From positions 528-64,527 of the forward strand of contig JAIQEZ010000009.1 in the NCBI GenBank assembly GCA_020073545.1: 64,000 nucleotides of DNA, written 5' to 3'. Shown here in pieces: positions 42,799 through 59,263 of this stretch. Position numbers and translations under genes: made by a program. How positions within the stretch are numbered: position 1 is the first letter of the stretch; each line of letters starts with the position of its first letter. The stretch is from Terriglobia bacterium (GTDB lineage: Bacteria; Acidobacteriota; Terriglobia; UBA7540). Below the pieces are notes generated by a model, which saw only the letters and a list, made by a program, of their open reading frames with translations, did no database searches and was not told the origin of the DNA.

Positions 42799-43467
42799 AT
42801 GGGCGGACCAACCGAGAAGAGCGTTGCAGGGGTCAAAGTTCCTGGATCTGGTGAAAGGACGCTCGTCTACATTCCGATTATCCACACCCAAGCGGATATG
42901 GGAGCGCTGAGCGAGTCAATCCAGCGCCTGAAGCTCAAGAGGCTAGGTAGAAAGGGCTGGGAGCGCAACGTGAATCTGGTCGGCCAATTGTGGGGCCAGA
43001 TCGAACAAGCCATCGAGAGTCTGACCCTTCCCTACGAACGGGTTCGTCTTTATCAGGACGGACTGCCGGTTTGTGGTCGCGAGGTGGAGATTGTTACGGA
43101 GCTCGCAAAGGCGGGGAGCCGGAACCATCGGCTGCTTCTTCGCTTAAGGGAGAAGGGCGCCACGATCATGGGCACGGAATCCTCCCAGCTCCTGGTGGAG
43201 GAATATCAACTCGTCAAGGAGGTTTTCGCTTCCGCGAAGCCTGCGGTCGCCACCCGAGGAGGGGCGCGCCAGGCAGCCTTGCGGGATTCCTTGCTCAAAC
43301 GGCGTGATCAATATATTGCCCGCCGGATCAACGACACGCTTCTCCCGGGGGAAACAGGCCTGATCTTCCTGGGAATGCTTCATGCCGCGGGGCACTGGCT
43401 GGATGCGGACATCCGAGTCGTCCATCCGCTTCATCAACCCTTGGATCGTGGAGAGAGGAAACCGTGA
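42799..43467 (+). CDS. Hypothetical protein, first gene of gvp block 1
   Basis: 222-aa ORF. Its stop overlaps the GTG start of the sigma-54 activator (GTGA at 43464-43467). No motif was recognised. Confidence 0.6.
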   Translation: MGGPTEKSVAGVKVPGSGERTLVYIPIIHTQADMGALSESIQRLKLKRLGRKGWERNVNLVGQLWGQIEQAIESLTLPYERVRLYQDGLPVCGREVEIVTELAKAGSRNHRLLLRLREKGATIMGTESSQLLVEEYQLVKEVFASAKPAVATRGGARQAALRDSLLKRRDQYIARRINDTLLPGETGLIFLGMLHAAGHWLDADIRVVHPLHQPLDRGERKP

Positions 43468-44873
43468 AACCCCTGGGAAGCAAGATCCTCATTTCGGACG
43501 ATAAAACCGAGATTCGAGCCATCCTTTCCGAATACATGGAGCGTGAGGGACTAACCCCCGTGGTGGCGCAGACTGGGCAAGAGGCCATGGAGAGGATCCG
43601 CGCGGAACATCCCGACGTTCTAATCGCAGATTTGAAGCTGCCCGATATGGACGGGATGCAAATCATGAAAGGAGCGAAAGCCCTGGACGAGGACCTCCCG
43701 GTCATTCTGATTACGGGCTTCCCGGACATTCGGGGCGCCGTGGCGGCCATGCGGGCTGGCGCTCACGATTACCTGGCGAAACCTCTCAAACACCACGAGG
43801 TGCTGCGCGTAGTCTTACGCGCGCTGAACGAACGCGCGCTCAAGCGCAAGCTCCGGCGCCTGTCCTCCCAGATTCAGGATAAGTCTTCGCTCCGAGAGAC
43901 CATGGGGCCCAGCGATGCCGTGGGCCGGTTGATCTCCGATGTAGGCCGGGTAGCCAGAACCAACTTCAGCGTCTTGATTCTGGGGGAAACCGGCTCGGGG
44001 AAAGAGTTGGTGGCACACGCCATCCATCAGAGCAGCCTTCGCTGCGAGGCAGCTTTCATGGCAGTCGATTGCGGGGCCATCCCGGAAACGCTTTTGGAAA
44101 GCGAATTGTTTGGCCACGAAAAGGGGGCCTACACCGGAGCCGACCGACAGAAGATCGGCAAGATCGAAATGGCCCGTGACGGAACACTCTTCCTGGACGA
44201 AATCTCCAACATGCCTCTCGGTTCCCAGGCCAAACTCCTGCGCGTGCTGCAGGAGAAGACGATTTGCCGCATCGGCGGCGCGCAGCCCATCAGCGCGGAT
44301 GTCCGCGTTCTGGCGGCCAGCAACCAGGACTTGCATCGCTTGGGGGAATCGGGCTCATTTCGCCGTGACGTCTATTTTCGGTTGAACGAATTCACCATCT
44401 GGGTTCCGCCCTTGCGGGAACGCCAGGAGGACATTCTCTATCTGGCCAAGCGGTTCATGGATCTCACCAGTCTTGAGTTGCAGAAGAAGGTGAAGGGCAT
44501 GACGCAGCCGGCGGTGGACGCTCTGCTCGCCTATCCCTGGCCCGGCAATGTTCGGCAGCTCCGTTCCATGATCCGCCGGGCGGCGCTTTTGGCGGACGAT
44601 ATGATCACCGAGCAGCACCTGGGGATGGATTGGGTATCCCCCCAACCCGCAAGTCCGGGCCCGGGATGCAGCCAGGAAACTCAGGACACACCCCAGGGAG
44701 ACCTTTCCCTCAAAGAAATCAAGCATCGTAAGATCGTCGCCATGGAGCGGGAGATCTTGGCTCAAGTGTTGCGGGAAACGGGCGGGAATAAGGCGAAAGC
44801 CGCTCGCTTGCTTCACATCGATTATAAAACCATCTATTCAAAAATCAGGCAATACGGTATCTCGGTAGACTGA
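43464..44873 (+). CDS. Sigma-54-dependent response regulator (REC + AAA+ + Fis-type HTH; NtrC class)
   Basis: REC domain (ISDDK...VLIADLKLPDMDG...YLAKP), Walker A GETGSGKE, a GAYTGA variant of the GAFTGA loop, and C-terminal HTH GNKAKAARLLHIDYKTIYSKIRQYGI. Confidence 0.9.
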   Translation: MKPLGSKILISDDKTEIRAILSEYMEREGLTPVVAQTGQEAMERIRAEHPDVLIADLKLPDMDGMQIMKGAKALDEDLPVILITGFPDIRGAVAAMRAGAHDYLAKPLKHHEVLRVVLRALNERALKRKLRRLSSQIQDKSSLRETMGPSDAVGRLISDVGRVARTNFSVLILGETGSGKELVAHAIHQSSLRCEAAFMAVDCGAIPETLLESELFGHEKGAYTGADRQKIGKIEMARDGTLFLDEISNMPLGSQAKLLRVLQEKTICRIGGAQPISADVRVLAASNQDLHRLGESGSFRRDVYFRLNEFTIWVPPLRERQEDILYLAKRFMDLTSLELQKKVKGMTQPAVDALLAYPWPGNVRQLRSMIRRAALLADDMITEQHLGMDWVSPQPASPGPGCSQETQDTPQGDLSLKEIKHRKIVAMEREILAQVLRETGGNKAKAARLLHIDYKTIYSKIRQYGISVD

Positions 44874-44890: not shown

Positions 44891-45409
44891 ATGACGGAAA
44901 AGAGAAGAGACCAAACTTCACACGGCGGGATGGAAGGCGGCCTCGGGGGGATCCTCAAGGGCCTGGGAGACCTGGTGGAAAAGCTCGGCGAACTGGACGA
45001 AACCGGTCAAGAGCTTTCCAAAACGGGAGAAATTAACGGTCCCGGGAAACAGCTCCGAGGGATTTACGGATTCACCGTTAAGGTCGGGCTGGGCGATCAA
45101 GGGCCTCGCATCGAGCCCTTCGGAAATATTCGCCGAGACATCAAATCCGGGCGAACCGAGGTTCAGGAGGTCCGTGAACCCATGGTCGATATCTTTGAGG
45201 AAGACGACCACCTGCTGGTTTTGGCGGAGTTGCCCGGCATCGGCAAGGAGAACCTGCGGATTGACCTCAAGGACGATGTGCTGACGATTTCCGCCGAGAA
45301 AAGGGACAAGAAGTACCGCAAGGAGGTCCTCTTGCCCCGCAGCGTCTCCAAGGAAAAGATGCAGATCTCGTGTAACAACGGGGTCTTGGAAATTGAATGT
45401 CCTAAGTAA
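44891..45409 (+). CDS. Hsp20/alpha-crystallin family small heat shock protein (GvpH-like position)
   Basis: 172 aa. EPMVDIFEEDDHLLVLAELPGIGKENLRIDLKDDVLTISAEKRDKKYRKEVLLP...NNGVLEIE is an alpha-crystallin domain. Confidence 0.85.
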   Translation: MTEKRRDQTSHGGMEGGLGGILKGLGDLVEKLGELDETGQELSKTGEINGPGKQLRGIYGFTVKVGLGDQGPRIEPFGNIRRDIKSGRTEVQEVREPMVDIFEEDDHLLVLAELPGIGKENLRIDLKDDVLTISAEKRDKKYRKEVLLPRSVSKEKMQISCNNGVLEIECPK

Positions 45410-45426
45410 CTCCCTAGAAAGGCGCC

Positions 45427-47583
45427 ATGAGTGAAGCCGGAGAGAAGTCTCTCAAACTCAAAGTCAGCGAGGCCCTCAGCAAGGACGTGAGCCGGGCTTA
45501 CGCCCGCTTGGGGCCGGAGGACCTCGCGCGCTTGCAGATCGATGTCGGCGACATCGTGGAAGTGGTGGGCAAGGGCAGGACGGTCTGCAAAGCGATGCCG
45601 GCTTACAAGGAGTTGCGCGGTCAGTCCCGGATTCAACTGGACGGACTCACGCGCGAGAATGCCGGGACAGGGCTCGATGAATTCGTTCGAGTGCGCAAAA
45701 TTGCGTGCCCGCCCGCCGAACGCGTGGTGCTGGCCCCCACGAACGTTACTCCTTCCGAGCGCGATTTGGATTACATCGGCAGCCGCCTCGATGGCCTGCC
45801 TGTCCTAGCCGAGAACCGCATCCGGGCCATCCTCTTTGGCGCCCGCTGGGCGGATTTTAAGGTGGAAAGCACCGTGCCCAAGGGTCCAGCCCTCATTCAC
45901 CCGACGACACAACTCGTGATCTCCAAAGGGGCTCAATCCGAAGAGGTGTCCGCCCGTGCGATTTCCTACGAAGACATCGGCGGACTGAGGCCCCAACTCC
46001 AGCGCATCCGCGAAATGATTGAGCTCCCCTTGCGTTACCCCGAGGTCTTCGAACGCCTGGGGATTGATGCGCCAAAAGGTGTGCTTCTGCACGGACCTCC
46101 CGGATGCGGAAAGACGCTTATTGCCCGGGCGATTGCCCATGAGACCCAGGCGAACTTTTTTGCCGTCAGCGGGCCCGAAATCATCCATAAGTTTTACGGG
46201 GAGAGTGAAGCCCATTTGCGGAAGATCTTTGAAGAGGGCAGCCGCAAGGCCCCCAGCATCATCTTCCTGGATGAGATCGACGCCATTGCCCCGCGACGCG
46301 AGCAAGTCGTGGGCGAGGTCGAGAAGCGGGTAGTCGCCCAGCTCTTGGCGTTGATGGACGGGCTCGCCAAGCGCCGGAAGGTTATCGTCATTGCCGCGAC
46401 CAACCTGCCTAACATGCTCGATCCGGCTTTGCGGCGGCCGGGCCGGTTCGACCGCGAGATTGCCATCCCCATTCCTGACCGTAACGGACGGTTGCAGATC
46501 CTCGAGATTCACAGTCACGGCATGCCTCTCGCCGAAAAGGTGGACTTGAATCACTTGGCGGAGATCACGCACGGTTTTGTGGGGGCCGACCTCGAAGCTC
46601 TTTGCCGCGAAGCCGCGATGATCTGCCTGCGGCACATCATGCCTGACGTGGACTTTGGCTTGGCGCAGATTCCTTATGCGCAACTGGCCAAGCTCGAGGT
46701 GGGAATGGACGATTTCCTGGAGGCCCTGCGGGATATTGAGCCTTCGGCGCTGCGCGAAGTGTTTGTGGAGGTTCCCGACGTGCACTGGAACGACGTCGGG
46801 GGGCTGGCCGAGGTCAAACAGCGCCTCGTGGAAGCCGTCGAGTGGCCTCTCCAGCACCCGGAGCTGTTCACCCAGGCGGGGATCCGGCCACCCAAGGGAA
46901 TCCTGCTATCGGGCTCCCCAGGCTGCGGAAAAACTCTCCTCGCTAAAGCGGTTGCCAGCGAAACCAAGGTGAACTTCATCTCCGTCAAAGGGCCGGAATT
47001 GCTCTCCAAGTATGTGGGGGAATCGGAGAAAGGCGTGCGCGAGGTATTTCGCAAGGCGCGCCAAGCCGCTCCCTGCATCGTTTTTTTCGATGAGATTGAC
47101 GCCCTTGTGCCCAGCCGGAGCGCTGGATCGTCCGACTCGCACGTGGCTGAGCGTGTCCTGAGCCAGTTTCTCGCGGAATTGGACGGGGTGGAAGAGCTGA
47201 AAGGAGTCTTGGTTCTTGGCGCGACCAACCGTTCAGACCTGCTGGATCCCGCTGCTCTCAGGCCCGGCCGGTTTGACGAGATTGTGGAAATTCCGGCCCC
47301 CGACGAGGAGGGGCGCCGCGAGATTTTCGCTATCCATCTGCGAAACAAACCTCTCGGCCGGGGCATCAGCGTGAAGGAACTGGCCTCCCGAACTGACGGG
47401 TTCGGCGGCGCCGACATCAGTTCGGTTTGCACTCGCGCCGCTCGCCGCGCCGTCCGGCGAGCCGTTCAGGCGGGCGAAAAAGCACCCGCCGACAAGGTGC
47501 GGGTGATTATCGAGGTCAGCGACCTCGAGGCGACGCTGGAAGAGACTCGCCAGCAGACTCTCAAAGAGATTGGTGAACGGTAG
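45427..47583 (+). CDS. Cdc48/VAT-like double-ring AAA+ ATPase
   Basis: 718 aa. The CDC48_N-like N-domain (LKLKVSEA...DVGDIVEVVGKGRTVCKAMP...IQLDGLTRENAG) is followed by two AAA modules with GPPGCGKT and GSPGCGKT Walker A motifs. Confidence 0.9.
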   Translation: MSEAGEKSLKLKVSEALSKDVSRAYARLGPEDLARLQIDVGDIVEVVGKGRTVCKAMPAYKELRGQSRIQLDGLTRENAGTGLDEFVRVRKIACPPAERVVLAPTNVTPSERDLDYIGSRLDGLPVLAENRIRAILFGARWADFKVESTVPKGPALIHPTTQLVISKGAQSEEVSARAISYEDIGGLRPQLQRIREMIELPLRYPEVFERLGIDAPKGVLLHGPPGCGKTLIARAIAHETQANFFAVSGPEIIHKFYGESEAHLRKIFEEGSRKAPSIIFLDEIDAIAPRREQVVGEVEKRVVAQLLALMDGLAKRRKVIVIAATNLPNMLDPALRRPGRFDREIAIPIPDRNGRLQILEIHSHGMPLAEKVDLNHLAEITHGFVGADLEALCREAAMICLRHIMPDVDFGLAQIPYAQLAKLEVGMDDFLEALRDIEPSALREVFVEVPDVHWNDVGGLAEVKQRLVEAVEWPLQHPELFTQAGIRPPKGILLSGSPGCGKTLLAKAVASETKVNFISVKGPELLSKYVGESEKGVREVFRKARQAAPCIVFFDEIDALVPSRSAGSSDSHVAERVLSQFLAELDGVEELKGVLVLGATNRSDLLDPAALRPGRFDEIVEIPAPDEEGRREIFAIHLRNKPLGRGISVKELASRTDGFGGADISSVCTRAARRAVRRAVQAGEKAPADKVRVIIEVSDLEATLEETRQQTLKEIGER

Positions 47584-48402
47584 ATGAAGAAGATTGAGGG
47601 GGCGCTCTATCTTTTTTGCTTTGCCCGCGCGGACCTCGTCGGCGAGCTCGAGGGGACGGGTGTGGATGGCCACCATCCCCTTTTCGTCCTACGAGGCTCG
47701 CCGGATCTAGGTGCGGTCGTCAGCGAGGTGCGCCTGGAAGATTTCTGCGGCCCGGTGGCGGAACTTCGAATGCAAGACCTGGCTTGGGTAGGGCCACGCG
47801 CCTTCCGCCACGAGGCCGTAGTCGAGCAGGTGATGCGTCATTCTCCCGTGCTGCCTGCCCGCTTCGGAACCCTTTTCTCATCGCAGGAAAGCTTGGCGGA
47901 ATTTCTTGCTACACATCGCAAGACCATTTCGCAGTTTCTCGAGCGGGTGGCCGACCAAGAAGAATGGTCAATCAAGGGGCTGCTCGACAGAAAGCAAGCC
48001 CTGCAGGCCCTCATGTCCGGAAGCTTGGCCGCGCAACAGGTGCAGCTTGCCGCGCTGCCTCCGGGAACCCGTTACTTTCAAGAACAGCGCATCCGATCGG
48101 CTGCGGAGAAGGAACTGAGCCGCTGGCTAAACGAAACCTGCCGGCAAGTCGCGAGCGACATGAGGAAGCAGGCTTCGGATTTCCGCGAATGCCAAGTTGT
48201 ACCTCGCGAGCCCCCAGAGAGCGGAACCGAGGTTGTGCTGAATTGGGCCTTTCTACTCCCGAGGAGTGCGACCACGGCATTTCGCTTGCGAATCGATCGG
48301 GTGAACGAAACCCATGCCACCCCGGGGCTGGTTTTCGAACTCTCCGGGCCCTGGCCCCCATATCGCTTCGTTCCTCCCCTATCGATGGGAACGGCCCCAT
48401 GA
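47584..48402 (+). CDS. GvpL/GvpF-family gas vesicle protein (copy 1)
   Basis: The N-terminus YLFCFARADL...GAVVSEVRLEDF...HEAVVEQVMRHSPVLPARFGTLF and the C-terminus LSGPWPPYRF are GvpF/L hallmarks. The ATG directly follows the Cdc48 stop. Confidence 0.85.
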   Translation: MKKIEGALYLFCFARADLVGELEGTGVDGHHPLFVLRGSPDLGAVVSEVRLEDFCGPVAELRMQDLAWVGPRAFRHEAVVEQVMRHSPVLPARFGTLFSSQESLAEFLATHRKTISQFLERVADQEEWSIKGLLDRKQALQALMSGSLAAQQVQLAALPPGTRYFQEQRIRSAAEKELSRWLNETCRQVASDMRKQASDFRECQVVPREPPESGTEVVLNWAFLLPRSATTAFRLRIDRVNETHATPGLVFELSGPWPPYRFVPPLSMGTAP

Positions 48403-49172
48403 GTTGCCTGCTTTACTGCATCTTCCGCAGCCCGGCACAGCCAAGACCCGGAATACCTCCCGGCGTCGGAGGGAAACCGGCATTCGTGGTGACGCGGAAT
48501 GGTTTGAGCGCAGGGCTTTCCGAGCTTGCGGAATCGGACCGGGTTCCTGATATCCCACAAATCCTCGCCTACGAAAGGGTGGTTGAATTCTTCTGTCGCG
48601 ACCTCACCATAATCCCCGTGCGGTATGGATGTCAGCTTGAAGACGCACGCGGGGCCCTCCGGTTGCTGGAAAGACACCGCGAGGAATACAGCGCGCTTCT
48701 CGACGAACTCGAGGGCCTAGGGGAGATGGGCATCCATCTTCTCCTCGACGGTTCCCGAGATGCAACGGAGAACGATGCACTGCCTGTCGCTCCCCAATCC
48801 TTTCCCCTTCCCTGTAGTTCCGGTGCTGCCTACCTTGCAGCAAAGCGACAACGTTATTTGGGTCTGGACCGGTTAGCCCTGCACGAGCGCTTGTTGGTGG
48901 ACGAGGTTTGCGGCTCCCTGTCCGGCCTCTTCGTCCGGCACAAGGTGGAATTTCCCGACTCGACCAGGAACCAACTGCTCTCCCTTTATTTCCTCGTGCC
49001 CCGCGGTTATGTCGAATCCTTTCGCCAAGCCGCTCGCAACCTCCGCTCGAAGGAGCCCGTCAAGCTGCTCTTGAGTGGCCCCTGGCCACCCTACAACTTC
49101 GTTCATTCCCTCGAAACGGCGATCCTGCCGCCACACGCTAGCCCCGAAAACAGCCTGCCCCTCAAAGGGTGA
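48399..49172 (+). CDS. GvpL/GvpF-family gas vesicle protein (copy 2)
   Basis: The ATG at 48399 overlaps the upstream stop (ATGA). MSCLLYCIFRS...ILAYERVVEFFCRDLTIIPVRYGC...LLSGPWPPYNF. The N-terminal half of the 518-aa track ORF is out-of-frame overlap. Confidence 0.8.
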   Translation: MSCLLYCIFRSPAQPRPGIPPGVGGKPAFVVTRNGLSAGLSELAESDRVPDIPQILAYERVVEFFCRDLTIIPVRYGCQLEDARGALRLLERHREEYSALLDELEGLGEMGIHLLLDGSRDATENDALPVAPQSFPLPCSSGAAYLAAKRQRYLGLDRLALHERLLVDEVCGSLSGLFVRHKVEFPDSTRNQLLSLYFLVPRGYVESFRQAARNLRSKEPVKLLLSGPWPPYNFVHSLETAILPPHASPENSLPLKG

Positions 49173-49358
49173 CCACTGGGGACTACCTACCCCGCAACTA
49201 GCGCCTGCATTGTATGGAGTGAATTCCTCAATGACCTGTTCCAGGTGCAACAATTCTCCCCGCGATGGCGCCTTTCTCTTTCGAATCAAGCTTTTCGGGA
49301 GGGAAGTATGCACTTTACGCAAGGGGTCGGCTTTCTAGCTAGCATGGCGCACCACCGA

Positions 49359-49550
49359 TTACTTCGGCCATCCCTCGGGCGGTTTCTTCTTCGCCAGCGA
49401 CTTCTTTATTGCCTGCTTCCAGTTGCCCTTAACCTTGAGGAGTTCCGGCTTTGGGCCTGGAGCGGCCTTATCCTGGCGCATGGTATTTTTGCTTTTCTTT
49501 CTCCGGTTATTTATGGGCTTAGGAAACATAGTACTTTTGTACCTTGACAA
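49359..49550 (-). CDS. Possible small basic hypothetical protein
   Basis: A 63-aa Lys/Arg-rich ORF in the lower-GC insertion. No motif was recognised. Confidence 0.25.
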   Translation of the reverse strand: MSRYKSTMFPKPINNRRKKSKNTMRQDKAAPGPKPELLKVKGNWKQAIKKSLAKKKPPEGWPK

Positions 49551-49710
49551 GCCCCTTGCGTCCCTTGTACTCTAAAGACGCTTCCAAGGCTTGTGCGTCC
49601 GATGTTCCGCTAATCGGGCTTCGGCCACAACACAAAATGTATGCCTCTCCAATAAAATGAAGAGGTTTACGTAATAAAGGGGGCCAATCCAATGAGCCCC
49701 CATTTTTATT

Positions 49711-50232
49711 TCACGCCTGTTTTCTCTCAATTCGAGCACGGATCGTTTCCAAGTCCAAAAACTTATTCGCAACGTTGATTAGGTCGTTAGAGATCGATCC
49801 CTTTCGACCAACAATGGTGACGACCTTTCCGATTGCGCGCAAGTGGCCAATGACCGGAATATAGTCGCTATCGCAGCCCATCAAGACAATTTCATCGTAA
49901 GTGTTGGCCTCGGTAAGCAACCTGAAAACCAACTCGATGTCCAGGTTCCCCTTGATCCTCAGGGGAACATCCGATGTCTCACTTTTGATGACTCTGACTT
50001 CCTTGTCCACAACGCTATAACCGATGCTCTGTAAGGCTGTCTTGAAATGACGATATTTTGTAACTCTCTCTGAGTCGCCAACCGGCGGCGTTGCAGTGAA
50101 ATAGTAAGCTGCGGCCTTTTCCTTGTTATCCGTAAAAAAGTTAAAGACCAAGCGCCAGTCAATATGCCAGTGATTGTCTCGCTGGGCATAGAACATGTTG
50201 GCTCCATCTACAAACAGTCCTACTCTTTGCAT
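49711..50232 (-). CDS. NYN (LabA-like/DUF88) domain protein, putative RNase
   Basis: MQRVGLFVDGANMFYA...DIELVFRLL...IVLMGCDSDYIPVIGHLRAIGKVVTIVG is the NYN pattern. The start is set at ATG 50232, which is preceded by ggagga. The upstream part of the track ORF is antisense to a tRNA. Confidence 0.8.
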   Translation of the reverse strand: MQRVGLFVDGANMFYAQRDNHWHIDWRLVFNFFTDNKEKAAAYYFTATPPVGDSERVTKYRHFKTALQSIGYSVVDKEVRVIKSETSDVPLRIKGNLDIELVFRLLTEANTYDEIVLMGCDSDYIPVIGHLRAIGKVVTIVGRKGSISNDLINVANKFLDLETIRARIERKQA

Positions 50233-50315
50233 TTTGTTCCTCCAAGGCGGCGGGACTTCCAAGGCCCGTACCTCATGGGGTATTATATCAGAGTCAGCCA
50301 TTAGAGTCCTCCTGT

Positions 50316-50399
50316 GCGGGGGTGGCGGAACCGGCAGACGCAACAGCCTTGGAAGCTGCTGGACGCAAGTCCGTGCGGGTTCAAATCCCGTCCCCCGCA
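50316..50399 (+). tRNA. Type II (long variable arm) Leu-like tRNA; hand-folded anticodon UGG
   Basis: Hand fold: acceptor GCGGGGG/CCCCCGC (7 bp) with discriminator A; D-arm GCGG-AACCGGCAG-ACGC; anticodon stem ACAGC/GCTGC (A:C mismatch at the top) with loop CTTGGAA; 15-nt variable arm with a GGAC/GTCC stem; T-arm GCGGG-TTCAAAT-CCCGT. No encoded CCA. Confidence 0.8.
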
Positions 50400-50400
50400 C

Positions 50401-51360
50401 TCACCTAACAAGTGGCTCTTTGTACATCAACCGCCTTCCCTCAGCCGCTTTAATCGCTATTACCGTGCGCTCTCCGTCGTTCAGCCCACGGTTATTCCAC
50501 AGAAAGTCGAACTGCCACAAGTAGCGGTGCAAGTATTCCTTGCTAACGTTGTGATAGATTCCCGCGATTCCGCGCTTGATGATGGCGAAAGATGATTCCG
50601 CCGTATTTGTGTGCGCCGTTCCCCGGACGTACTCTCGCTTGCTGTGCCGGACTCTTCGATGGCCGCCAGCAAACTCTTTCCCAATGCCGTCATAGGCGGA
50701 GAAATCGTCTGTGAAAATCCGCGCATTCGGATCGACTACTTCCCGAATGGCTGCCTTGAGAGTCTTGCCGCTAACATCAGCAACCACGCGCCGTCGGATT
50801 TCACCTTGCCGCTGCACAGCCGCGAACACCGGCGTCTTTCTCGTACCGCGTCCCGGCAGGCTATGCCCACGATAGCGCGGTTTGCCGCCCACATAGGTTT
50901 CATCACATTCGACCGTGCCCGTTAGTTTGGGTGCCGTGGCTTGATCTGGGGCCATCGCAAAACGAATCCGGTTCATAAGGAATAGCGCCGACTTGTAACT
51001 GATCTGACAATGCCGCTTGATCTCAAGGGCAGCCACACCTTTCTTCGATGTGGAAGCACGCCAAAACGCATAGCACCAGTGGCGAAGGTCAAGACGGCTC
51101 TCTTCATACACCGTGCCAATACGCACCGTGTATTGCCCCTTGCAATCATGGCAGCGCCAGAGAAACCGCTTGTTTCGTTTACCGCTGGCCGCATCAGTCA
51201 TCTTATAAACCGCCACGCTTCCGCAATGGACGCACGCGGGAGTCTGTCCCCAGCGCAGTTCTTCCAAGAGTTCCACCGCAGCCAATTCATCTGAGCAAGC
51301 CAGTGGAATCTGCTCCACAGTGACGGACCTTGATAGGTTGTGTCGTTTCTCGTTTTCCAT
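50401..51360 (-). mobile_element. IS1595-family (ISXO2-like) transposase gene; IS ends not defined
   Basis: 319 aa. An N-terminal zinc ribbon (CVHCGS...WRCHDCKGQYTVRIGT) is followed by a DDE_Tnp_IS1595-type domain (VECDETYVGGK...IFTDDFSAYDGI...HNVSKEYLHRYL). The stop codon abuts the tRNA 3' end. Confidence 0.85.
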
Positions 51361-51606
51361 GGTCTAATGTTATACATAACACAAGCCTTGTGTCAAGTAA
51401 AAAATGGAGTCTCCCCCACGCTTTTTAGAGTGTATTGTAAAGTTTCTTGATTACTGATATAAGTGTCACAGGTCTACTCGATTCTTCGTCTGTGAGGACA
51501 TCATCTTGGACCTCGGCGACGAAGCGTAAAGACTAGATATATCAGCCCGCCGATGCCCCCCACGACTACATAGAAGGAGAAGTATTCCTCATCGAAATCA
51601 TTACCC

Positions 51607-52437
51607 ATGAACAAGACAGAACTCGTATCCGCACTTTCGGCCCTGGGAACTTGGATACAAGTATTCGGAGTACTTGTAGCGATTGGAATTGTCGGCGAAG
51701 TTGGCGTTGGTGTTCGGAGTTGGATACTCAATAGAAGGTTGCAGGCCATCGAGCGCGTCGAGGACATGGAACAACGGACGGAAATAGCTCGATTAAACCG
51801 AGAGGCTGGAGATGCCCGTAAGGATGCAGCGCTCGCGATAGAACGCGCAAGCAGTGCTGAAGAAAACCTAGCTGGAGCAAATGAGCGAGCTGCACTAGCC
51901 GAACAACATGCCGCAGAGGCAAGCGCCAAAGCGGAAGGGTTCCGTCTTGATATTGCTAAGGCCAATGAACGTGCCGCAGATGCCAACCGAATTGCGGAGC
52001 AAGAAAGACTTGCTCGACTCCAACTAGAAGCTAGGCTTGCGGATCGAGTCTTGACCCCCGACGGGCAATCCCGGCTCACAGCCTTGGCCGCTACCTTTCC
52101 GCATGGCACTCGGATCGACATATTCATGTTCGGCGGCACCTTGGAGATTGCCAATATTACCCAATCAATCAATAAGTCATTGGCAGCCGGGGGCTGGACG
52201 GTACGGCAGTGGCAAGTAACCGGGGGAGGAGCCGTTCGTGGAATATTGGTCGGCACTAACCCCAGTGCCGATGCCGCGACAGCCCGAGCCGCTTCTGGGA
52301 TTATCTCCACGTTAGTTTCGGCAGGGGTAGGCGCAGGCCCTTGGAAGTTCGATGAGTTGGTCATGAGTGGAATGGCGCAGGGACCGGGCGAGCCGATGGA
52401 CGCGCCCATAAGAATGTTCATCGGCAGCAAGCAATAG
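51607..52437 (+). CDS. Hypothetical membrane-anchored coiled-coil protein
   Basis: 276 aa. An N-terminal TM helix (WIQVFGVLVAIGIVGEVGVGV) is followed by an Ala/Glu/Arg-rich coiled coil and a globular C-terminal domain. It is preferred over the low-complexity antisense ORF 51501..52490. Confidence 0.6.
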   Translation: MNKTELVSALSALGTWIQVFGVLVAIGIVGEVGVGVRSWILNRRLQAIERVEDMEQRTEIARLNREAGDARKDAALAIERASSAEENLAGANERAALAEQHAAEASAKAEGFRLDIAKANERAADANRIAEQERLARLQLEARLADRVLTPDGQSRLTALAATFPHGTRIDIFMFGGTLEIANITQSINKSLAAGGWTVRQWQVTGGGAVRGILVGTNPSADAATARAASGIISTLVSAGVGAGPWKFDELVMSGMAQGPGEPMDAPIRMFIGSKQ

Positions 52438-52528
52438 AAAATCCCACCAACAGTCCAAATTAGGACACTACGTCCTTGCGTAAAGTGCATACTTCCGTTT
52501 CGGGAAACCCACCGATACTGAACTCGCG

Positions 52529-52544
52529 TGGCATCAGTCCTGCT
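52529..52544 (+). promoter_or_regulatory. Candidate sigma-54 (-24/-12) promoter of gvpA
   Basis: TGGCAT-cagtc-CTGCT compares with the consensus TGGCAC-N5-TTGCW. GG (52530-31) and GC (52542-43) have the canonical spacing. It lies about 85 nt upstream of the gvpA ATG, and a sigma-54 activator is encoded in the locus. Confidence 0.55.
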
Positions 52545-52629: not shown

Positions 52630-52848
52630 ATGGCAAAGGTCGCAAAGTCGACTGACTCCTCAAGCCTGGCGGAAGTAGTTGATCGGATTCTCGACAAGGG
52701 AATCGTGATCGACGCCTGGGCCAAGGTGTCGCTGGTCGGGATCGAGCTGTTATCCGTCGAAGCCCGCGTGGTGATCGCTTCGGTCGAGACCTACCTGAAG
52801 TACGCCGAAGCTATTGGTCTGACAGCGAATGCTGCGGCTCCTGCTTAA
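52630..52848 (+). CDS. gvpA: Gas vesicle structural protein GvpA
   Basis: 72 aa. [55 protein letters not shown] is the canonical GvpA core. The RBS ggaaggag lies 7 nt upstream of the ATG. Confidence 0.95.
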
Positions 52849-52955: not shown

Positions 52956-53246
52956 ATGGGTAGATTGTTGGAAGACATGACTCGACTGAGCGAGGAAATC
53001 CAAGCGCTGCGCGGAAGCCGTCGGGCGTTCCGAAAAGAACTCGCGGACGGCAACAAGGATCGCCAGATGGATGTCTTTGAAATGTGTGTCGACCTTGCAG
53101 ACACACAAGCTCGAATGGCAAAGAGGGCGAAAGCGGAGCGTCTTGCTTTCTTGAACAACCTGAAGCGAAACGTCGGCGGGCAGCAACGGGAAATGAGGGC
53201 TGATATTGCTGGCGCGCGCCGTGCCTGGGCGGGCGGGGGCGCGTAG
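52956..53246 (+). CDS. Coiled-coil protein, gvp-associated (paralog 1)
   Basis: 96 aa with a strong RBS (agggagggg). The N-terminus MGRLLEDMTRLSEEIQALRGSR is shared with the next gene. Confidence 0.7.
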   Translation: MGRLLEDMTRLSEEIQALRGSRRAFRKELADGNKDRQMDVFEMCVDLADTQARMAKRAKAERLAFLNNLKRNVGGQQREMRADIAGARRAWAGGGA

Positions 53247-53384: not shown

Positions 53385-53792
53385 ATGGGGATGCTAACCG
53401 AAGACATGACTCGATTGCGGGACGAAATCCTGGCGCTACGAAGCTCGCGCCAGGGACTGATCCATGATCTGGCGCGCGAGACCGAGAAGCGACGGGCTGA
53501 CGTGTCAAGTATGCTCGCCAACACTTCCGAAGCCCTCAGTGCCGTCGCCAAGGCGACGAAAGCCGATCGTTTGGGTTCCATCGCGGACCTCAAAAGCGCC
53601 GTCGCCGACATTCTGAGTGGCGTTAGCACGGATCTGTGCGGCATTCGACAAGTCTGGCTGGCCTCGGGCACTCCAGCGCGCTGGGCTGGGGGGGAATGCG
53701 GAAAACAGACAAGGCAGGTAGCCGCGGCCGACTCGAAAGGAAGCCGGAGTGTGACAGGTCGCAAGCCCGCGCCGGTACGCAAGAAGCGATAG
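53385..53792 (+). CDS. Coiled-coil protein, gvp-associated (paralog 2) with basic C-terminal tail
   Basis: 135 aa with RBS aaggag. MGMLTEDMTRLRDEILALRSSR... is collinear with 52956..53246 over about 90 aa. Confidence 0.7.
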   Translation: MGMLTEDMTRLRDEILALRSSRQGLIHDLARETEKRRADVSSMLANTSEALSAVAKATKADRLGSIADLKSAVADILSGVSTDLCGIRQVWLASGTPARWAGGECGKQTRQVAAADSKGSRSVTGRKPAPVRKKR

Positions 53793-53867
53793 CATTAAGT
53801 CTCCAACAGCCGGGATGCGGGTTAAGCTCCGACGAGCTCGAGATGCTTGGAGAGAGGGAAAAACACG

Positions 53868-54884
53868 ATGAATGGTGACGAGGCGAAGGATGTCCTGGTG
53901 GCCAGCGAAGTAGTCGAACCCCAAGGACACAGTATTGTGCTTGAGCCCAGCGATGAGTTCGTCTTGACCCCGCAGATCAAGGCGCTGGCAGACAGGGCGC
54001 TGAGCTACCTGGATGTCGGATACGCGGTCCACTTCGCAGGGCCGGCAGGCACGGGAAAGACGACCCTCGCCCTGCACGTGGCTGCGCAGATCGGTCGGCC
54101 GGTTGTCCTCATCCATGGCGACGACGAATTTGGCAGTTCCAACCTGATTGGCAAGAATTCCGGCTTCCGCACGTCCAAGCTCATTGATAATTATATTCAC
54201 TCCGTGGTGAAGACCGAAGAAAGCTTGAGCACGCTTTGGGAGGACCATCAGCTCACCACCGCCTGCCTCGACGGACACACCCTCATTTACGATGAGTTCA
54301 ACCGTTCCCGGCCCGAAGCCAACAATGTGCTCCTCAGCATCCTGGAAAAGAGGATTCTCAATCTGCCTAGCCTGCGCCGGTCCGGTGAGGGGTACGTACA
54401 TGTACACGAGAACTTTCGGGCCATCCTGACGTCGAACCCTGAGGAATATGCCGGCGTCCACAAGACGCAGGACGCGCTGGTGGACAGGATGATTACCATC
54501 GACCTCGGACATTTCGATCGCGAAACGGAGATTCAAATCACCAAGGCGAAGTCAGGCATTCCCACCGAGGATGCCGAAAGGATCGTGGACATTGTCAGGG
54601 AGCTCCGCGGGGTGGGTGTGAACAACCACCGCCCCACGATTCGGGCCTGCATCGCCATCGCCAAGATCCTTTCCCGCCGCAATGGGCGCGCCCAGATAGG
54701 GGATCCCACCTTTTGGTGGGTATGCTGCGACGTTCTCAAAACGGACACGGCCAAGGTTACTCATGATGGCCAGTCACTTATGTTGGGGAAGGTGGAAGAG
54801 GCGATCAGGAGAATCTGCGGGAACCATGGGAACGGCAACCATGCGAAGCGCCGAAAGAATCACCACCGGGGCGCTACGGCCTGA
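53868..54884 (+). CDS. gvpN: Gas vesicle AAA+ ATPase GvpN
   Basis: YAVHFAGPAGTGKTTLALHVAAQIGRPVVLIHGD...LIYDEFNRSRPEANNVLLSILEKRIL is the GvpN/CbbQ-type pattern. The start could be 53847 or 53868. Confidence 0.9.
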   Translation: MNGDEAKDVLVASEVVEPQGHSIVLEPSDEFVLTPQIKALADRALSYLDVGYAVHFAGPAGTGKTTLALHVAAQIGRPVVLIHGDDEFGSSNLIGKNSGFRTSKLIDNYIHSVVKTEESLSTLWEDHQLTTACLDGHTLIYDEFNRSRPEANNVLLSILEKRILNLPSLRRSGEGYVHVHENFRAILTSNPEEYAGVHKTQDALVDRMITIDLGHFDRETEIQITKAKSGIPTEDAERIVDIVRELRGVGVNNHRPTIRACIAIAKILSRRNGRAQIGDPTFWWVCCDVLKTDTAKVTHDGQSLMLGKVEEAIRRICGNHGNGNHAKRRKNHHRGATA

Positions 54885-55281: not shown

Positions 55282-55629
55282 ATGATTCTGGAAACCGAAA
55301 AGGAGCTCCGGCAGGTCGTGCAGATTGCCGTCGCCACGGCACTGGCTTGTTGGGGCTTTCCTTTGCTGGCGCTCTTGCTAGTTCTTCTAATCTTGCCGTG
55401 GCAGCCGATCTATCGGATGGCCGCGTATCTCGGGGGTGTGGTCCTGGAAGTCAAAGCGCAAAGGACGGTCAAGCGGGCGATGAAGAAGCTGCACGAGGAA
55501 CCCGCGCACGTCACCCAGCCCAGCCCGGGGGCGGGGGGGGCCGAGCGGGGTTCTCCCGCACATCGTCGTCCTGGGAACTCGGAGGAGAGGATATGCGAAT
55601 CAACTGTTTGGGCTGCGGGTACAAATTAG
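55282..55629 (+). CDS. Small membrane protein in gvp block 2
   Basis: 115 aa with RBS gaggag and a hydrophobic segment VVQIAVATALACWGFPLLALLLVLLILPW. Its 3' end overlaps the next small ORF, so the true stop and extent are uncertain. Confidence 0.45.
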   Translation: MILETEKELRQVVQIAVATALACWGFPLLALLLVLLILPWQPIYRMAAYLGGVVLEVKAQRTVKRAMKKLHEEPAHVTQPSPGAGGAERGSPAHRRPGNSEERICESTVWAAGTN

Positions 55630-55712
55630 ACCTGGACGAGGCTTACGACGACTATGATGGCCCGGTGAAATGCTTCGCATGCGAGGCAATTCTTGAGATC
55701 CGCACGGAATAG
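55593..55712 (+). CDS. 39-aa zinc-ribbon protein in gvp block 2
   Basis: MRINCLGCGYKLDLDEAYDDYDGPVKCFACEAILEIRTE contains two CxxC pairs. A strong RBS (ggaggagagg) precedes the ATG. The TAG stop is followed by 44 in-frame sense codons. Confidence 0.6.
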   Translation: MRINCLGCGYKLDLDEAYDDYDGPVKCFACEAILEIRTE

Positions 55713-55913: not shown

Positions 55914-56171
55914 TTGGGTGGAGAAAAGCCTGAGGAGGCAGCAAATCGCCGGAATCGACAAAGACCCGAGCTGATGGAGCGCGACCATGCTCGAGCCTCC
56001 CAGACCTTGCTCACCCGTATCTTGGACCTCCACATCTCGGGCCGCACAGCGGACGAAATCGCCGCGCAGCCTCTTACCACCGAGCCCGAGGACGCCATGT
56101 TCCGTGCCGCGATGCTGGTGGAGATGATCCTTCACTACGCCCGCCGCTGTCCGGGGGAGACAAACCAGTGA
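55914..56171 (+). CDS. Small protein with possible helix-turn-helix (LuxR/sigma region-4-like) segment
   Basis: 85 aa from TTG 55914, or 65 aa from ATG 55974. Contains LLTRILDLHISGRTADEIAAQ. The stop overlaps the GTG start of the next gene (GTGA). Confidence 0.45.
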   Translation: MGGEKPEEAANRRNRQRPELMERDHARASQTLLTRILDLHISGRTADEIAAQPLTTEPEDAMFRAAMLVEMILHYARRCPGETNQ

Positions 56172-56971
56172 GTATGGGCCAAACAACGACCGCGAAAGCG
56201 CCTGAGAAGCAACCGCCGAGTCAACCTGCAGCCAGGGGCAGGACGTACCTTTACGCGGTCATAGGCGACGCGCAGGGCCGGACGTACGGTGACTTCGGCG
56301 TCGATGGGCGAAAGGTATATTCCATCCCTGCTGGGAAAGTGGCGGCTGTCGTCAGCGACGTGCCCAGCGGAACGCTCCGCCCGGAACGCTCCCGTCTCGC
56401 CGCCCATCAGGAAGTCCTCAAAAAACTCATGGCGGAGGCCACGCCGCTGCCCATGTCCTTCGGGATCCTTGCGGACAGCCCGCAGGCCGTTCGAAACATG
56501 CTTTCTCGCAACCAGCATGCCCTCCGCGAGCAACTCCGTCGCGTGGCGGGCAAAGTGGAGATGGGTTTGCGAGTCACTTGGGACGTGCCCAACATCTTCG
56601 AGTATTTCGTGAATACCCATCCGGAACTGAGGCTCGCCCGGGACCGATTACTGGGAGGCCAACGCGAGCCCACGCAGGAGCAGAAGATCGAAGTCGGAAG
56701 GCTGTTCGAGCGTCTTCTCAACGAGGATCGGGAAGCCTACGCCGACAAAGTGGAAGCAATCCTAGCGCCCCACTGCTTTGAGATCGAGCCGAACAAATGC
56801 CGCAACGAAGGCGAGGCGCTGAATCTGGCCTGTCTCGTCGAGCGTGCGGCGATGCCACAATTCGAAAGCAGCGTCTTCGAGGCCGCGAAGCAGTTTGATA
56901 ACAACTTTGCCTTCGACTATAACGGACCGTGGGCGCCCCACAACTTTGTCGAGGTCGACCTCGAGCTTTAA
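56168..56971 (+). CDS. GvpL/GvpF-family gas vesicle protein (copy 3)
   Basis: YLYAVIGDAQ...VYSIPAGKVAAVVSDVP...LAAHQEVLKKLMAEATPLPMSFG...YNGPWAPHNF. Confidence 0.85.
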   Translation: MSMGQTTTAKAPEKQPPSQPAARGRTYLYAVIGDAQGRTYGDFGVDGRKVYSIPAGKVAAVVSDVPSGTLRPERSRLAAHQEVLKKLMAEATPLPMSFGILADSPQAVRNMLSRNQHALREQLRRVAGKVEMGLRVTWDVPNIFEYFVNTHPELRLARDRLLGGQREPTQEQKIEVGRLFERLLNEDREAYADKVEAILAPHCFEIEPNKCRNEGEALNLACLVERAAMPQFESSVFEAAKQFDNNFAFDYNGPWAPHNFVEVDLEL

Positions 56972-56994
56972 GACCGGCGATACGGGAGGAAGCC

Positions 56995-57291
56995 ATGGTG
57001 CTCGTGGATGACGTCTTGATGTTTCCCATCCGCAGTGTGCTCTGGATCTTCCGTGAGATTCACAACGCCGCCCAGGAGGAGCTTGCCAACGAGAGTGAAT
57101 CCATTACCGCGGAGCTGAGTGGTCTTTACATGATGCTGGAAACCGGAAAGATCTCGGAGGAAGAGTTCGCCGCGGAAGAAAAGACCTTACTCGACCGGTT
57201 GGACAGAATCCAAAAGCCTGACAGGGGCCTCGAACGGGAGGATGGCAGAGAGCAAAAGCAGGACCAACGTGAAGAGAGAAGCGTCGCGTGA
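56995..57291 (+). CDS. gvpG: Gas vesicle protein GvpG
   Basis: MVLVDDVLMFPIRSVLWIFREIHNAAQEEL...LSGLYMMLETGKISEEEFAAEEKTLLDRL is the GvpG pattern. RBS gggagga. Confidence 0.85.
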   Translation: MVLVDDVLMFPIRSVLWIFREIHNAAQEELANESESITAELSGLYMMLETGKISEEEFAAEEKTLLDRLDRIQKPDRGLEREDGREQKQDQREERSVA

Positions 57292-57316
57292 GGGGCGCAT
57301 TAGATGCGCAGAGAGC

Positions 57317-59263
57317 ATGGCAGCTCCACCGTTTTTGGACAACCGAGGCTTACAACTGCTTGTCTTTGGAGGCAAAGGCGGAGTCGGAAAGACGACGTGC
57401 GCTACCGCAACGGCGCTGAAATTGGCCAGACGCTCACCCAAATCATCTTTTCTCCTGGTTTCCACGGACCCCGCGCACTCCCTCACGGATAGCCTGGCGG
57501 GCTCGCTTCCACCCGACAATTTGAAGGTATTCGAACTGGATGCGCAGGAATACCTCGCCACCTTCAAGAAGAGCCATCACGCCAAACTCCGGGAAATCGC
57601 CTCGCGTGGAACCTTCCTCGATGACGACGAAATTAGCCGCTTCCTGGATCTCTCCTTGCCGGGCTTGGATGAACTCATGGGCTTTCTGGAGATCTCCGCC
57701 TGGGTGGAAAATCGGAGCTACGATTGCATTATCCTGGACACCGCCCCCAGTGGTCACACGCTACGCTTGCTTGCCATGCCGGAATTCCTCCGCAAATGGC
57801 TGGACATGCTGGAAACGCTGCTGGCGAAGCACCGCTACATGAAGTGGGCCTTCACCCGCTCCAACCATCGCGACGAGCTCGACACCTTCCTCGAGGGGTT
57901 AGCGGCATCGGTGAAACGGATGGAAGAATTACTCCAGGATCCGGTTCGTTGCCGGTTTGTCCCGGTCATGCTCGCCGAGGCGATGAGCATCCGCGAGACC
58001 ATGGCAATCGTGAAGGAACTGGATCGTCTCAAGCTTCCAAGGACCGACGTCGTGATCAACGGGCTCTATCCGGATAACGCCTGCGCGATTTGTCGGGACG
58101 GGCGCCCCCGCCAGATTCGGGAACTGCAGAGTCTTTTCCGTCAAACCCATCTGTCCAAGTTGGCATTCTGGGCTGTCCCGTTTTACGCCGAGGAGGTCCG
58201 CGGGCGGGAAGCTCTCGAATCGTTCTGGGATCAGGTGGAGCAAATCAGCGCAGCGCCACGCGCGGGGCGCGGACCGTCGGTGGCTCCGCCGCTAAGCGTG
58301 GAGGCAGCCGCACCGTGGCCTCCCCCTGAGACTACCCTTCTGATCTTTGCGGGCAAGGGTGGTGTGGGAAAGACAACCCTGGCCTGCGCCACAGCACTGC
58401 AACTGGCGCACACCGGTTCAGGGAAGAATGTCCTTCTGTTCTCGACGGGACCTGCTCACTCGTTGTCAGGGTGTCTCGAGACGCAGATCGACTCCCGGCC
58501 GAAGGTCGTGAGCTCCGGCCTCACGGCCCTGGACATTGATTCGGAGGCGGAATTGGAGGCTTTGAAAAAACAGTACGCGGGGGACATTGAGAAATTCCTG
58601 CACTCGCTGGCGAGCAACTTTGATCTGACTTTCGACCGCGAGGTGCTCGAGAGGATTCTGGATCTCTCCCCTCCCGGCCTGGACGAGGTGATGGCCCTGA
58701 CGCGCGTCATGGCCCTACTCGCCTCAGGCAGCTACGACGTTCTGGTCCTCGACTCAGCATCGACGGGTCACCTGGTTCGGCTGCTGGAGCTCCCGGAAAT
58801 CATTGACCAGTGGCTGAAGCTCTTTTTCGAACTCTTCCTGAAATACCAACAGGTCTTTCGCCTGACGAAGTTTTCTCAGGAATTGGTGACGATGTCGAAA
58901 AATCTCAAAAGACTCAGAGAACTGTTGAGCGATCCGGCTAGGGCCGCTCTGTATGCCGTTAGCATTCCGACAGATATGGCCTTTGAGGAAACACGGGATT
59001 TGGTGGCCGCCTGCGAGCGCTTAGGCATCCGGGTGCCCGGGATGTTTCTCAACCTCGTCACGCCGCGCAGTGATTGCGACTTGTGTTCCGCCCTGTACCG
59101 CCGGGAGTCTCGAGTGCGCCAGAAGTTTCAACAGAGCCTTTCGGGTAGGGACGTCACAGTGGTTTATCGTCGCGGAGACATGCGAGGCCTTTGCCGGCTG
59201 GGAGAACTGGGGAAGGCCCCTTACCAAAGCAGCCGCGTGGAATCGAGAGCCTATGTCTGTTGA
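57317..59263 (+). CDS. Tandem-duplicated ArsA/Get3 (TRC40)-family ATPase
   Basis: It has two homologous halves. Each carries a deviant Walker A (FGGKGGVGKTT and FAGKGGVGKTT), an STDPAHSL/STGPAHSL motif, and a DTAP-type switch (ILDTAPSGHTLRLL and VLDSASTGHLVRLL). The start is set at ATG 57317. Confidence 0.85.
   Translation: MAAPPFLDNRGLQLLVFGGKGGVGKTTCATATALKLARRSPKSSFLLVSTDPAHSLTDSLAGSLPPDNLKVFELDAQEYLATFKKSHHAKLREIASRGTFLDDDEISRFLDLSLPGLDELMGFLEISAWVENRSYDCIILDTAPSGHTLRLLAMPEFLRKWLDMLETLLAKHRYMKWAFTRSNHRDELDTFLEGLAASVKRMEELLQDPVRCRFVPVMLAEAMSIRETMAIVKELDRLKLPRTDVVINGLYPDNACAICRDGRPRQIRELQSLFRQTHLSKLAFWAVPFYAEEVRGREALESFWDQVEQISAAPRAGRGPSVAPPLSVEAAAPWPPPETTLLIFAGKGGVGKTTLACATALQLAHTGSGKNVLLFSTGPAHSLSGCLETQIDSRPKVVSSGLTALDIDSEAELEALKKQYAGDIEKFLHSLASNFDLTFDREVLERILDLSPPGLDEVMALTRVMALLASGSYDVLVLDSASTGHLVRLLELPEIIDQWLKLFFELFLKYQQVFRLTKFSQELVTMSKNLKRLRELLSDPARAALYAVSIPTDMAFEETRDLVAACERLGIRVPGMFLNLVTPRSDCDLCSALYRRESRVRQKFQQSLSGRDVTVVYRRGDMRGLCRLGELGKAPYQSSRVESRAYVC

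Follow-up and report, generated by a model that had tools for sequence, protein, structure and literature searches.

We analysed a 64,000-nt stretch of contig JAIQEZ010000009.1 from a Terriglobia bacterium (the window; all coordinates are positions in it), which carries a gas vesicle (gvp) gene cluster in which a small heat-shock protein gene and a gene for a Cdc48-like AAA+ protein lie among regulatory and gvpF/L genes. Domains were called by Pfam and NCBIfam profile searches with curated cut-offs. Six genes on the + strand make up the module under study. The first (42799-43467) encodes a 222-residue protein, here p222, and its stop codon overlaps the start of the next gene (GTGA). This second gene (43464-44873) occupies the position of gvrA in Serratia and encodes an NtrC-type sigma-54 activator with REC, AAA+ and Fis-type helix-turn-helix (HTH) domains (Pfam Response_reg, E 1e-24; Sigma54_activat, E 9e-65; HTH_8, E 1e-10). 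It is followed by a GvpH-type small heat-shock protein (sHsp) of the Hsp20 family (44891-45409; Pfam HSP20 and GvpH) and by a Cdc48/VAT-family double-ring AAA+ protein composed of N, D1 and D2 domains (45427-47583; NCBIfam TIGR01243). Two GvpF/L proteins complete the series, one in the position of Serratia GvpF2 (47584-48402; Pfam GvpL_GvpF, E 2.8e-53) and one in that of GvpF3 (48399-49172; Pfam GvpL_GvpF, E 2e-37, scored on the longer open reading frame (ORF) 47616-49172; NCBIfam GvpL, E 2.5e-6).

The six genes are separated by gaps of -4, 17, 17, 0 and -4 nt. The packing described by an earlier, sequence-only reading of this DNA was found as stated: the Hsp20 gene starts 18 nt after the activator and the cdc48 gene 18 nt after the Hsp20 gene, leaving 17 nt between in both cases, and the ATG of the first gvpF/L gene adjoins the TAG stop codon of cdc48 with a 0-nt gap. 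The two gvpF/L genes share a 4-nt overlap (ATGA). Scanning the + strand of the module for sigma-70 promoters and terminators revealed nothing convincing inside it. Given this close packing (-4 to 17 nt) and the lack of such signals, p222-activator-GvpH-Cdc48-GvpF/L-GvpF/L is predicted to form a single operon. Internal promoters before hsp20 or cdc48 were considered and rejected, the apparent enrichment of sigma-54 matches there lying inside coding sequence (the HTH region of the activator and hsp20). In a gas vesicle cluster of the Serratia type, carried here by a soil acidobacterium of the Terriglobia, the module represents the half with accessory and regulatory genes.

The Cdc48-like protein passes the NCBIfam CDC48 model TIGR01243 with 885.9 bits (cut-off 802.65), and Pfam resolves it into CDC48_N (78.1 bits), CDC48_2 (26.0 bits), two AAA and two AAA_lid_3 domains. 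Its top relative of solved structure is Thermoplasma VAT (5g4f, E 1e-207), behind which rank plant CDC48A and human p97, and the alignment to VAT is collinear over residues 8-682, spanning N, D1 and D2. D1 contains the Walker A motif GPPGCGKT, the Walker B motif FLDEIDA and the pore loop KFYG (KYYG in VAT); the corresponding motifs of D2 are GSPGCGKT, FFDEIDA and KYVG (KWVG in VAT). Across 76 members of the clade to which the protein belongs, the Walker and aromatic pore-loop motifs are near-invariant, D2 varying as G(S/P)PGCGKT and KY/WVG. Judged by these motifs, the protein has every sequence feature of a processive unfoldase. Membership of the FtsH, PAN or Mpa families was rejected: these models, like that of CdvC, match through single AAA modules only and score below their cut-offs, while the protein has two AAA modules and a Cdc48 N domain.

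VAT and archaeal Cdc48 can dock onto the 20S proteasome through a C-terminal HbYX motif. The window protein shares the N-D1-D2 collinearity of Thermoplasma acidophilum VAT but differs from it in the tail: it ends in TLKEIGER, and the HbYX motif is missing from it as from all C-termini of the clade. Nothing therefore points to a link with a proteasome-like protease, and proteasomes are not known from these bacteria.

A search of representatives clustered at 50% identity returned 20,852 proteins at E <= 1e-30, a result that informs family size only, as the clustering merged the gvp-linked clade into remoter representatives. Among the ten nearest named representatives, at 49-57% identity, were proteins of Bathyarchaeota, Thermoplasmatota, a haloarchaeon, an Asgard archaeon and Dadabacteria. 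This agrees with the analysis of Ziemski et al., in which non-actinobacterial bacterial Cdc48s group with the archaeal ones, apart from Cpa (PMC6017811). The two nearest bacterial Cdc48s beyond the clade whose contexts were examined (57% and 53% identity) are encoded next to neither gvp nor Hsp20 genes, and stand-alone Cdc48 genes on alphaproteobacterial plasmids have no Hsp20 neighbour. In a rough neighbour-joining tree, indicative only since it has no bootstrap and contains no Cpa sequence, the gvp-linked Cdc48s from nine phyla form one tight clade, which is neighboured by a Methylosinus protein and sits beside other bacterial and archaeal VAT-like sequences; branching inside the clade disagrees with organism phylogeny. 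Cpa resembles the window protein in being a bacterial N-D1-D2 Cdc48-family ATPase, but it forms an actinobacterial clade encoded beside psd and pssA, whereas the window protein is encoded beside gvp genes. The sequence-only placement in the Cdc48 class stands, with VAT the closest protein of solved structure and FtsH rejected; the separation from Cpa is drawn from gene neighbourhood and literature. Database annotation already calls these proteins 'CDC48 family AAA ATPase'.

The sHsp encoded immediately upstream passes both Pfam HSP20 (37.1 bits, cut-off 20.8) and Pfam GvpH (29.3 bits over residues 18-136, cut-off 22), and scores slightly below the cut-off of the NCBIfam archaeal Hsp20 model NF041800 (134.5 versus 140 bits). 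It aligns over its full length with the annotated GvpH of Methylosinus pMSC49b (30% identity over 160 residues), and its alignment with Halobacterium Hsp20 is confined to the 79-residue crystallin domain. The protein consists of an alpha-crystallin domain and a GvpH-like N-terminal extension. Haloarchaeal GvpH keeps GvpM from aggregating (PMC9501494). The window sHsp also weakly matches the model 'HSP20-like domain found in ArsA'.

Homologs of the window Cdc48 at 76-92% identity are very numerous in metagenomes, and the closest metagenome-assembled genomes come from peat sites (SPRUCE). For synteny we retained one genome per species, giving 80 loci with a Cdc48 70-93% identical to that of the window, and built a tblastn matrix with the window proteins. 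These loci carry the labels of about nine phyla: Acidobacteriota, Desulfobacterota (including Geobacter), Methylomirabilota/Rokubacteria, Thermoleophilia, Verrucomicrobiota, Lentisphaerae, Clostridia, Sumerlaeota and a spirochaete. The order p222-activator-Hsp20-Cdc48-GvpF/L-GvpF/L was found in nearly all of them (79 of 80 species genomes, with Desulfomonile, L001 and L003-L006 among them), showing that the arrangement is not due to chance. Position is conserved for p222 before the activator in 66 of the 80 loci, for the activator before Hsp20 in 71 and for the first GvpF/L in 75. Wherever the contig permits, gvpA, gvpN, gvpF, gvpG and gvpK lie at most 10 kb from the module, and gvp genes accompany it in 79 of the 80 species genomes. 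Two homolog contexts read p222, activator, GvpH, Cdc48, GvpF/L, GvpF/L, gvpA, two small genes, gvpN, small genes, gvpF, gvpG, sometimes ArsA, gvpJ, gvpK, gvpJ and a PAS histidine kinase. The linkage of the module to gvp genes that the sequence-only reading wished to see checked across genomes is therefore conserved over some nine phyla.

Two loci depart from this picture. In a deltaproteobacterial metagenome-assembled genome (L058, 7368-12124), the Hsp20 and Cdc48 genes remain intact, but frameshifts interrupt p222 and the activator, and gvp genes are absent from the surrounding 10 kb; it is the sole genome of the 80 in which the pair is uncoupled from gvp. In another (L076), the pair stands beside divergently oriented gvpA-like and gvpF genes. 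At identities of at least 65%, close relatives did not contain the pair as a free two-gene cassette.

Median identities to the window proteins are 95% for GvpA, 74% for Cdc48, 67% for GvpN, 61% for Hsp20, 55% for the activator and 44% and 39% for the two adjacent GvpF/L proteins, so that Cdc48 ranks second in conservation within the cluster, after GvpA. Within the clade, Cdc48 identity amounts to 68% in N, 84% in D1 and 71% in D2. The window N domain is 48.5% identical to that of the gvp-linked Cdc48 of Methylosinus and 27% identical to that of the Hsp20-linked Cdc48 of haloarchaea, while D1 and D2 are about equally similar to both. This pattern suggests that whatever the N domain binds, partner or substrate, moves together with the gvp genes.

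The arrangement is not new and matches a published one. Serratia sp. 39006 has a gvrA-gvpH-gvpZ-gvpF2-gvpF3 operon in which GvrA is an NtrC-family regulator, and the unit was probed by 5'RACE on gvrC-primed cDNA (PMC4982088). As in Serratia, an activator, GvpH, a large gene and two GvpF/L genes follow each other on one strand in the window, and this operon is paired with a gvpA-gvpN-gvpF-gvpG-gvpK operon. Its position, first in the window, is that of the gvrA operon in Desulfomonile tiedjei and Psychromonas, where it is also placed first (PMC4982088). Unlike Serratia, the window has no gvrB or gvrC after the gvpF3-type gene, the operon stopping at 49172; it has p222 before the activator, an ArsA-like ATPase, a split caused by an IS1595-type insertion and an acidobacterial host.

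The large gene of the Serratia operon encodes GvpZ, a protein listed as of unknown function and conserved in beta-, gamma- and deltaproteobacterial clusters, including that of Desulfomonile tiedjei (PMC4982088). Desulfomonile genomes are among our 80 loci, and Cdc48 occupies the GvpZ position there. Furthermore, the primers used to delete Serratia gvpZ (gvpZ_5R and gvpZ_3F) encode MSEE at the start and VRWEDVG at the rejoining point (PMC4982088), and (D/N)VRWEDVGG is the most frequent D2-start motif in the window Cdc48 clade. The gvpZ primer 20-mer matches the D2 start of a gvp-linked Cdc48 at metagenome locus L093, and it also matches an unrelated ORF at L092; because of this second, chance match the 20-mer alone is no proof of identity. 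Taken together, gene position, the primer-encoded peptides and the Desulfomonile link make it very probable that Serratia GvpZ is this Cdc48/VAT-type protein. Since VRWEDVG marks the start of D2 by homology, the in-frame gvpZ deletion of Serratia would leave D2 in place, and the published mutant may not be a true null, with a complete D2 AAA module still expressed. Within the searchable literature library, no paper was found joining gas vesicle clusters to a Cdc48-type ATPase, and a full-text search for 'gas vesicle' and 'Cdc48' returned only haloarchaeal papers treating both as unrelated. The arrangement is thus already published and its dispensability for vesicle formation documented; the interest lies mainly in GvpZ probably being a VAT-like unfoldase and in a possible recycling role.

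The pairing of an sHsp with a Cdc48 protein is also found in archaea. In Halobacterium pNRC200 and in Natrinema, an Hsp20 gene directly precedes a Cdc48 gene of the same orientation in a neighbourhood free of gvp genes, and in Pyrococcus furiosus the adjacent HSP20 (log2FC 5.4) and VAT1 (log2FC 6.7) genes are heat-induced and Phr-regulated (PMC10746257). The window pair resembles these in having the sHsp immediately before Cdc48/VAT, at a gap of 17 nt, and in the N-D1-D2 double ring with aromatic pore loops, D1 and D2 being 55-62% identical. In contrast, the archaeal pairs have no gvp genes beside them, their sHsp has no GvpH-type N-terminal region and their regulation is by heat shock, whereas the window pair follows a sigma-54 activator in a gvp cluster. 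The alphaproteobacterial plasmid pMSC49b of Methylosinus sp. C49 also combines gvpH with a CDC48-family ATPase (56.7% identical to the window Cdc48) in a gvp cluster. However, there the pair closes one gvpA-gvpN-gvpF-gvpG-gvpJ operon, a hypothetical gene separates gvpH from cdc48, and the cluster has neither an adjacent sigma-54 activator nor the GvpF/L pair. The existence of free archaeal Hsp20-Cdc48 cassettes indicates a recruited general proteostasis pair, not a gas-vesicle-specific invention. The pair, as far as comparison of sequences and neighbourhoods can tell, was probably an archaeal-type sHsp-unfoldase couple taken up into gas vesicle clusters. From distribution and similarity, the simplest history would be that the N domain and the sHsp extension were specialised after recruitment and that the whole cluster spread horizontally.

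The other half of the cluster lies downstream, with all genes on the + strand. The major shell protein gene gvpA (52630-52848) was located by tblastn with an Anabaena GvpA query (80% identity, E 4e-33); the same search located two GvpA-family genes near 59.3 and 59.9 kb. The AAA+ gene gvpN (53847-54884; TIGR02640, 333.5 bits, cut-off 266.8) makes the Cdc48-like protein the second AAA+ of the cluster, one in addition to GvpN as the sequence-only reading had it. A third GvpF/L gene follows (56168-56971; Pfam GvpL_GvpF, E 3e-66), then gvpG (ORF 56929-57291; Pfam GvpG, E 1.7e-16), an ArsA/Get3-type double P-loop ATPase gene (57242-59263; Pfam ArsA_ATPase, E 3e-111; TIGR00345, 381 bits), a gvpJ-like gene (59232-59540), gvpK (59404-59904; Pfam GvpK, E 3e-31) and a gvpJ/S-like gene (59916-60239), the GvpJ-like and GvpJ/S-like proteins matching Pfam Gas_vesicle with E 3e-18 and 4e-16. 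The ArsA-like protein, encoded between gvpG and the gvpJ-like gene, is the third ATPase of the cluster and an optional one, being present in only 27 related loci and absent, for example, from L003 and L004. Castillo and Saier described ArsA homologs and Hsp20 in gvp clusters, with Cdc48 unmentioned, and listed one acidobacterial gvp cluster with an arsA homolog, hsp20 not being listed there (PMC2963123).

Several small genes accompany these. Right after gvpA, two paralogous small proteins are encoded (52956-53246 and 53385-53792, +), both beginning with MG(R/M)L(L/T)EDMTRL, with no Pfam or NCBIfam match and kept in position among relatives (96 residues; 145-161 residues); they are possible candidates for GvpC-like shell-binding proteins. 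In the stretch of small unannotated genes that separates gvpN from gvpF, a short ORF (55596-55712, +, inside ORF 55347-55712) ends in MRINCLGCGYKLDLDEAYDDYDGPVKCFACEAILEIRTE and has two CxxC pairs resembling a zinc ribbon. In relatives, a PAS-HisKA-HATPase sensor kinase gene directly follows the last gvp gene; in the window, 60240-61600 holds no convincing ORF, and no histidine kinase homolog was found anywhere in the 64,000 nt. At the head of the operon, the sole Pfam match of p222 is weak (TraB_PrgY_gumN, 17.8 bits, cut-off 26.8). The protein bears IIHT and GMLH motifs, and every one of its database homologs is named hypothetical. Its AF2 model has a predicted local distance difference test (pLDDT) score of 78.8, and a Foldseek search of this model against the PDB gave no significant match, the top TM-score being 0.37 (ChaN, 2g5g). 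As a weak lead, p222 possibly has a distant TraB/GumN/ChaN-like fold.

The two halves of the cluster are split by a 3.2-kb IS1595-type insertion (49302-52496; Pfam DDE_Tnp_IS1595 and NYN). It ends in perfect 23-nt terminal inverted repeats, is flanked by an 8-bp duplication TTTCGGGA at 49293-49300 and 52498-52505, and within it GC content drops to 0.53-0.56. Its cargo comprises an NYN-domain gene (49711-50232, - strand), a tRNA gene, the transposase gene and an ORF of 276 residues of unknown function (51607-52437). The closest relatives (L007, L084, L009 and L010) lack the insertion, and in them gvpA begins about 2 kb after the Cdc48 stop codon; the split is thus a recent insertion and not the native layout. 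The tRNA of the element (50316-50400, +; Rfam tRNA, 53.6 bits) has 85 nt, a discriminator A and a long variable arm of about 13-16 nt, which makes it type II like the tRNAs for Leu, Ser and Tyr. Its anticodon loop, CUUGGAA, nevertheless has the Pro anticodon UGG. It could be a transposon-borne tRNA that mis-decodes, or else a tRNA-Pro of unusual form. Part of its anticodon region recurs in inverted orientation at 49580-49599.

Between the insertion and gvpA, a sigma-54-type -24/-12 promoter-like element, TGGCATCAGTCCTGCT, was found on the + strand at 52529-52544, 85 nt upstream of the gvpA ATG. A scan of the whole window with the sigma-54 consensus showed no enrichment (35 matches versus 31 expected). 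Comparison across loci, in contrast, supports this element, and it is the only one that we accepted: of the 60 loci compared (within L001-L086), 34 have a YGGY-N8-TGC element at a distance of 62-110 nt before gvpA, and the reverse-complement control yields one in 3. The comparison suggests that gvpA is driven by the cluster's own sigma-54 activator across phyla, as with GvrA in Serratia. As the end of the insertion lies 33 nt upstream of the -24/-12 element, the gvpA promoter may have been cut off from upstream activator sites.

We hold with moderate confidence that the GvpH-Cdc48 pair would act as an accessory holdase and unfoldase for aggregation-prone Gvp proteins. GvpH would serve as an ATP-independent holdase for the very hydrophobic, aggregation-prone proteins of the GvpA family, and Gvp proteins that had misassembled or aggregated would be threaded past the aromatic pore loops of the Cdc48/VAT hexamer at the expense of ATP and released to re-enter the assembly driven by GvpF/L and GvpN. 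Such a logic would resemble that of the bacterial sHsp-plus-disaggregase and of the archaeal Hsp20-VAT heat-shock pair. The pair would be a portable helper that moves with the cluster by horizontal transfer and not a core assembly factor. As for the substrates and the direction of action that this assigns to the Cdc48 ring, we would give them an even chance of being right.

Several observations weigh against this proposal. The equivalence with GvpZ rests on position, primer peptides and the Desulfomonile genomes, one of the two 20-mer matches being fortuitous. In Serratia, vesicles still formed and were as strong as before when gvpH or gvpZ was deleted (PMC4982088). With the Serratia cluster in E. 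coli, the signal was about 44-48 when gvpZ was deleted and 45-47 when gvpH was deleted, to be compared with 46-50 for the wild type, about 25 for the gvpC deletion and about 13 for the gvpW deletion, the text of that paper speaking of reduced signal (PMC10344784, supplementary file 7). In BL21-AI, single deletions of gvpH or gvpZ even raise the yield (bioRxiv 10.1101/2024.10.30.621148). These mild phenotypes imply that the GvpH-Cdc48 pair is accessory or conditional. Of the quality-control, disassembly or recycling step advanced in the sequence-only reading, the unfoldase features and the gvp linkage hold, and the step itself, which is inferential, is reduced by the deletions to an accessory or conditional one.

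Alternatively, and in the stronger form of the sequence-only reading, the Cdc48 ring and GvpH could extract GvpA from collapsed or surplus shells, either for reuse of the protein or for an active lowering of buoyancy. Both rings look processive with their aromatic pore loops, conservation across phyla is very high, and if the pair were required only once vesicles have collapsed, the missing deletion phenotype in standard assays would be explained. However, the cluster encodes no protease partner and the protein has no HbYX tail with which to dock one. Re-formation of vesicles after collapse is on record for Serratia (PMC4982088). We regard disassembly and recycling as unlikely. The boldest form of this idea, a GvpH and Cdc48/VAT-type GvpZ couple acting as a dedicated, horizontally mobile disaggregase or extraction machine for the amyloid-like GvpA shell, is a speculation that we would not expect to prove correct. 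If it were true, the subunits of collapsed or unwanted vesicles would be stripped or recycled without a proteasome and buoyancy would be actively reversible. The effect would have been missed because assays measured vesicle formation only and because the Serratia gvpZ deletion appears to keep D2.

The pair might also be a stress cassette of archaeal Hsp20-VAT type that was captured by a mobile gvp island and serves general proteostasis, with no substrate specific to gas vesicles. The gvp-free pairs of Halobacterium pNRC200 and Natrinema, the heat induction of the Pyrococcus pair (PMC10746257), the grouping of non-actinobacterial bacterial Cdc48s with archaeal ones (PMC6017811) and the small effect of the deletions are in line with such hitch-hiking. 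It is hard to reconcile with the location of the pair, which in 79 of the 80 genomes has the activator on one side and the essential gvpF2/F3-type genes on the other at gaps of only 0-17 nt, with the GvpH-specific N-terminal region of the sHsp, or with an N domain that is kept among gvp-linked Cdc48s and not in the archaeal ones. The pair found without gvp genes in L058 is a remnant, given the frameshifts in its p222 and activator genes. This makes mere hitch-hiking distinctly improbable.

A last possibility is suggested by haloarchaea, where GvpD lowers the amount of GvpE: by analogy, the AAA+ ring would be a regulatory unfoldase that sets the level of the sigma-54 activator or of the GvpF/L proteins. 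Although Cdc48 is encoded close after the activator in the same predicted operon and Serratia is sensitive to the stoichiometry of its GvpF and Gvr proteins (PMC5601083), the protein has no homology to GvpD, the pairing with an sHsp fits chaperone work better and deletion of Serratia gvpZ caused no visible change in vesicle production (PMC4982088), which leaves this role very improbable.

The proposed holdase and unfoldase function gives a testable role to gvpH and gvpZ, which are now deleted as dispensable. The engineering of gas vesicle clusters into acoustic reporters makes it a practical question which of their accessory genes are important. For the biology of these organelles, a bacterial organelle cluster has probably taken in a proteostasis pair of the archaeal Hsp20-Cdc48 type, and sigma-54-controlled gas vesicle clusters are extended to the Acidobacteriota of peat and soil.

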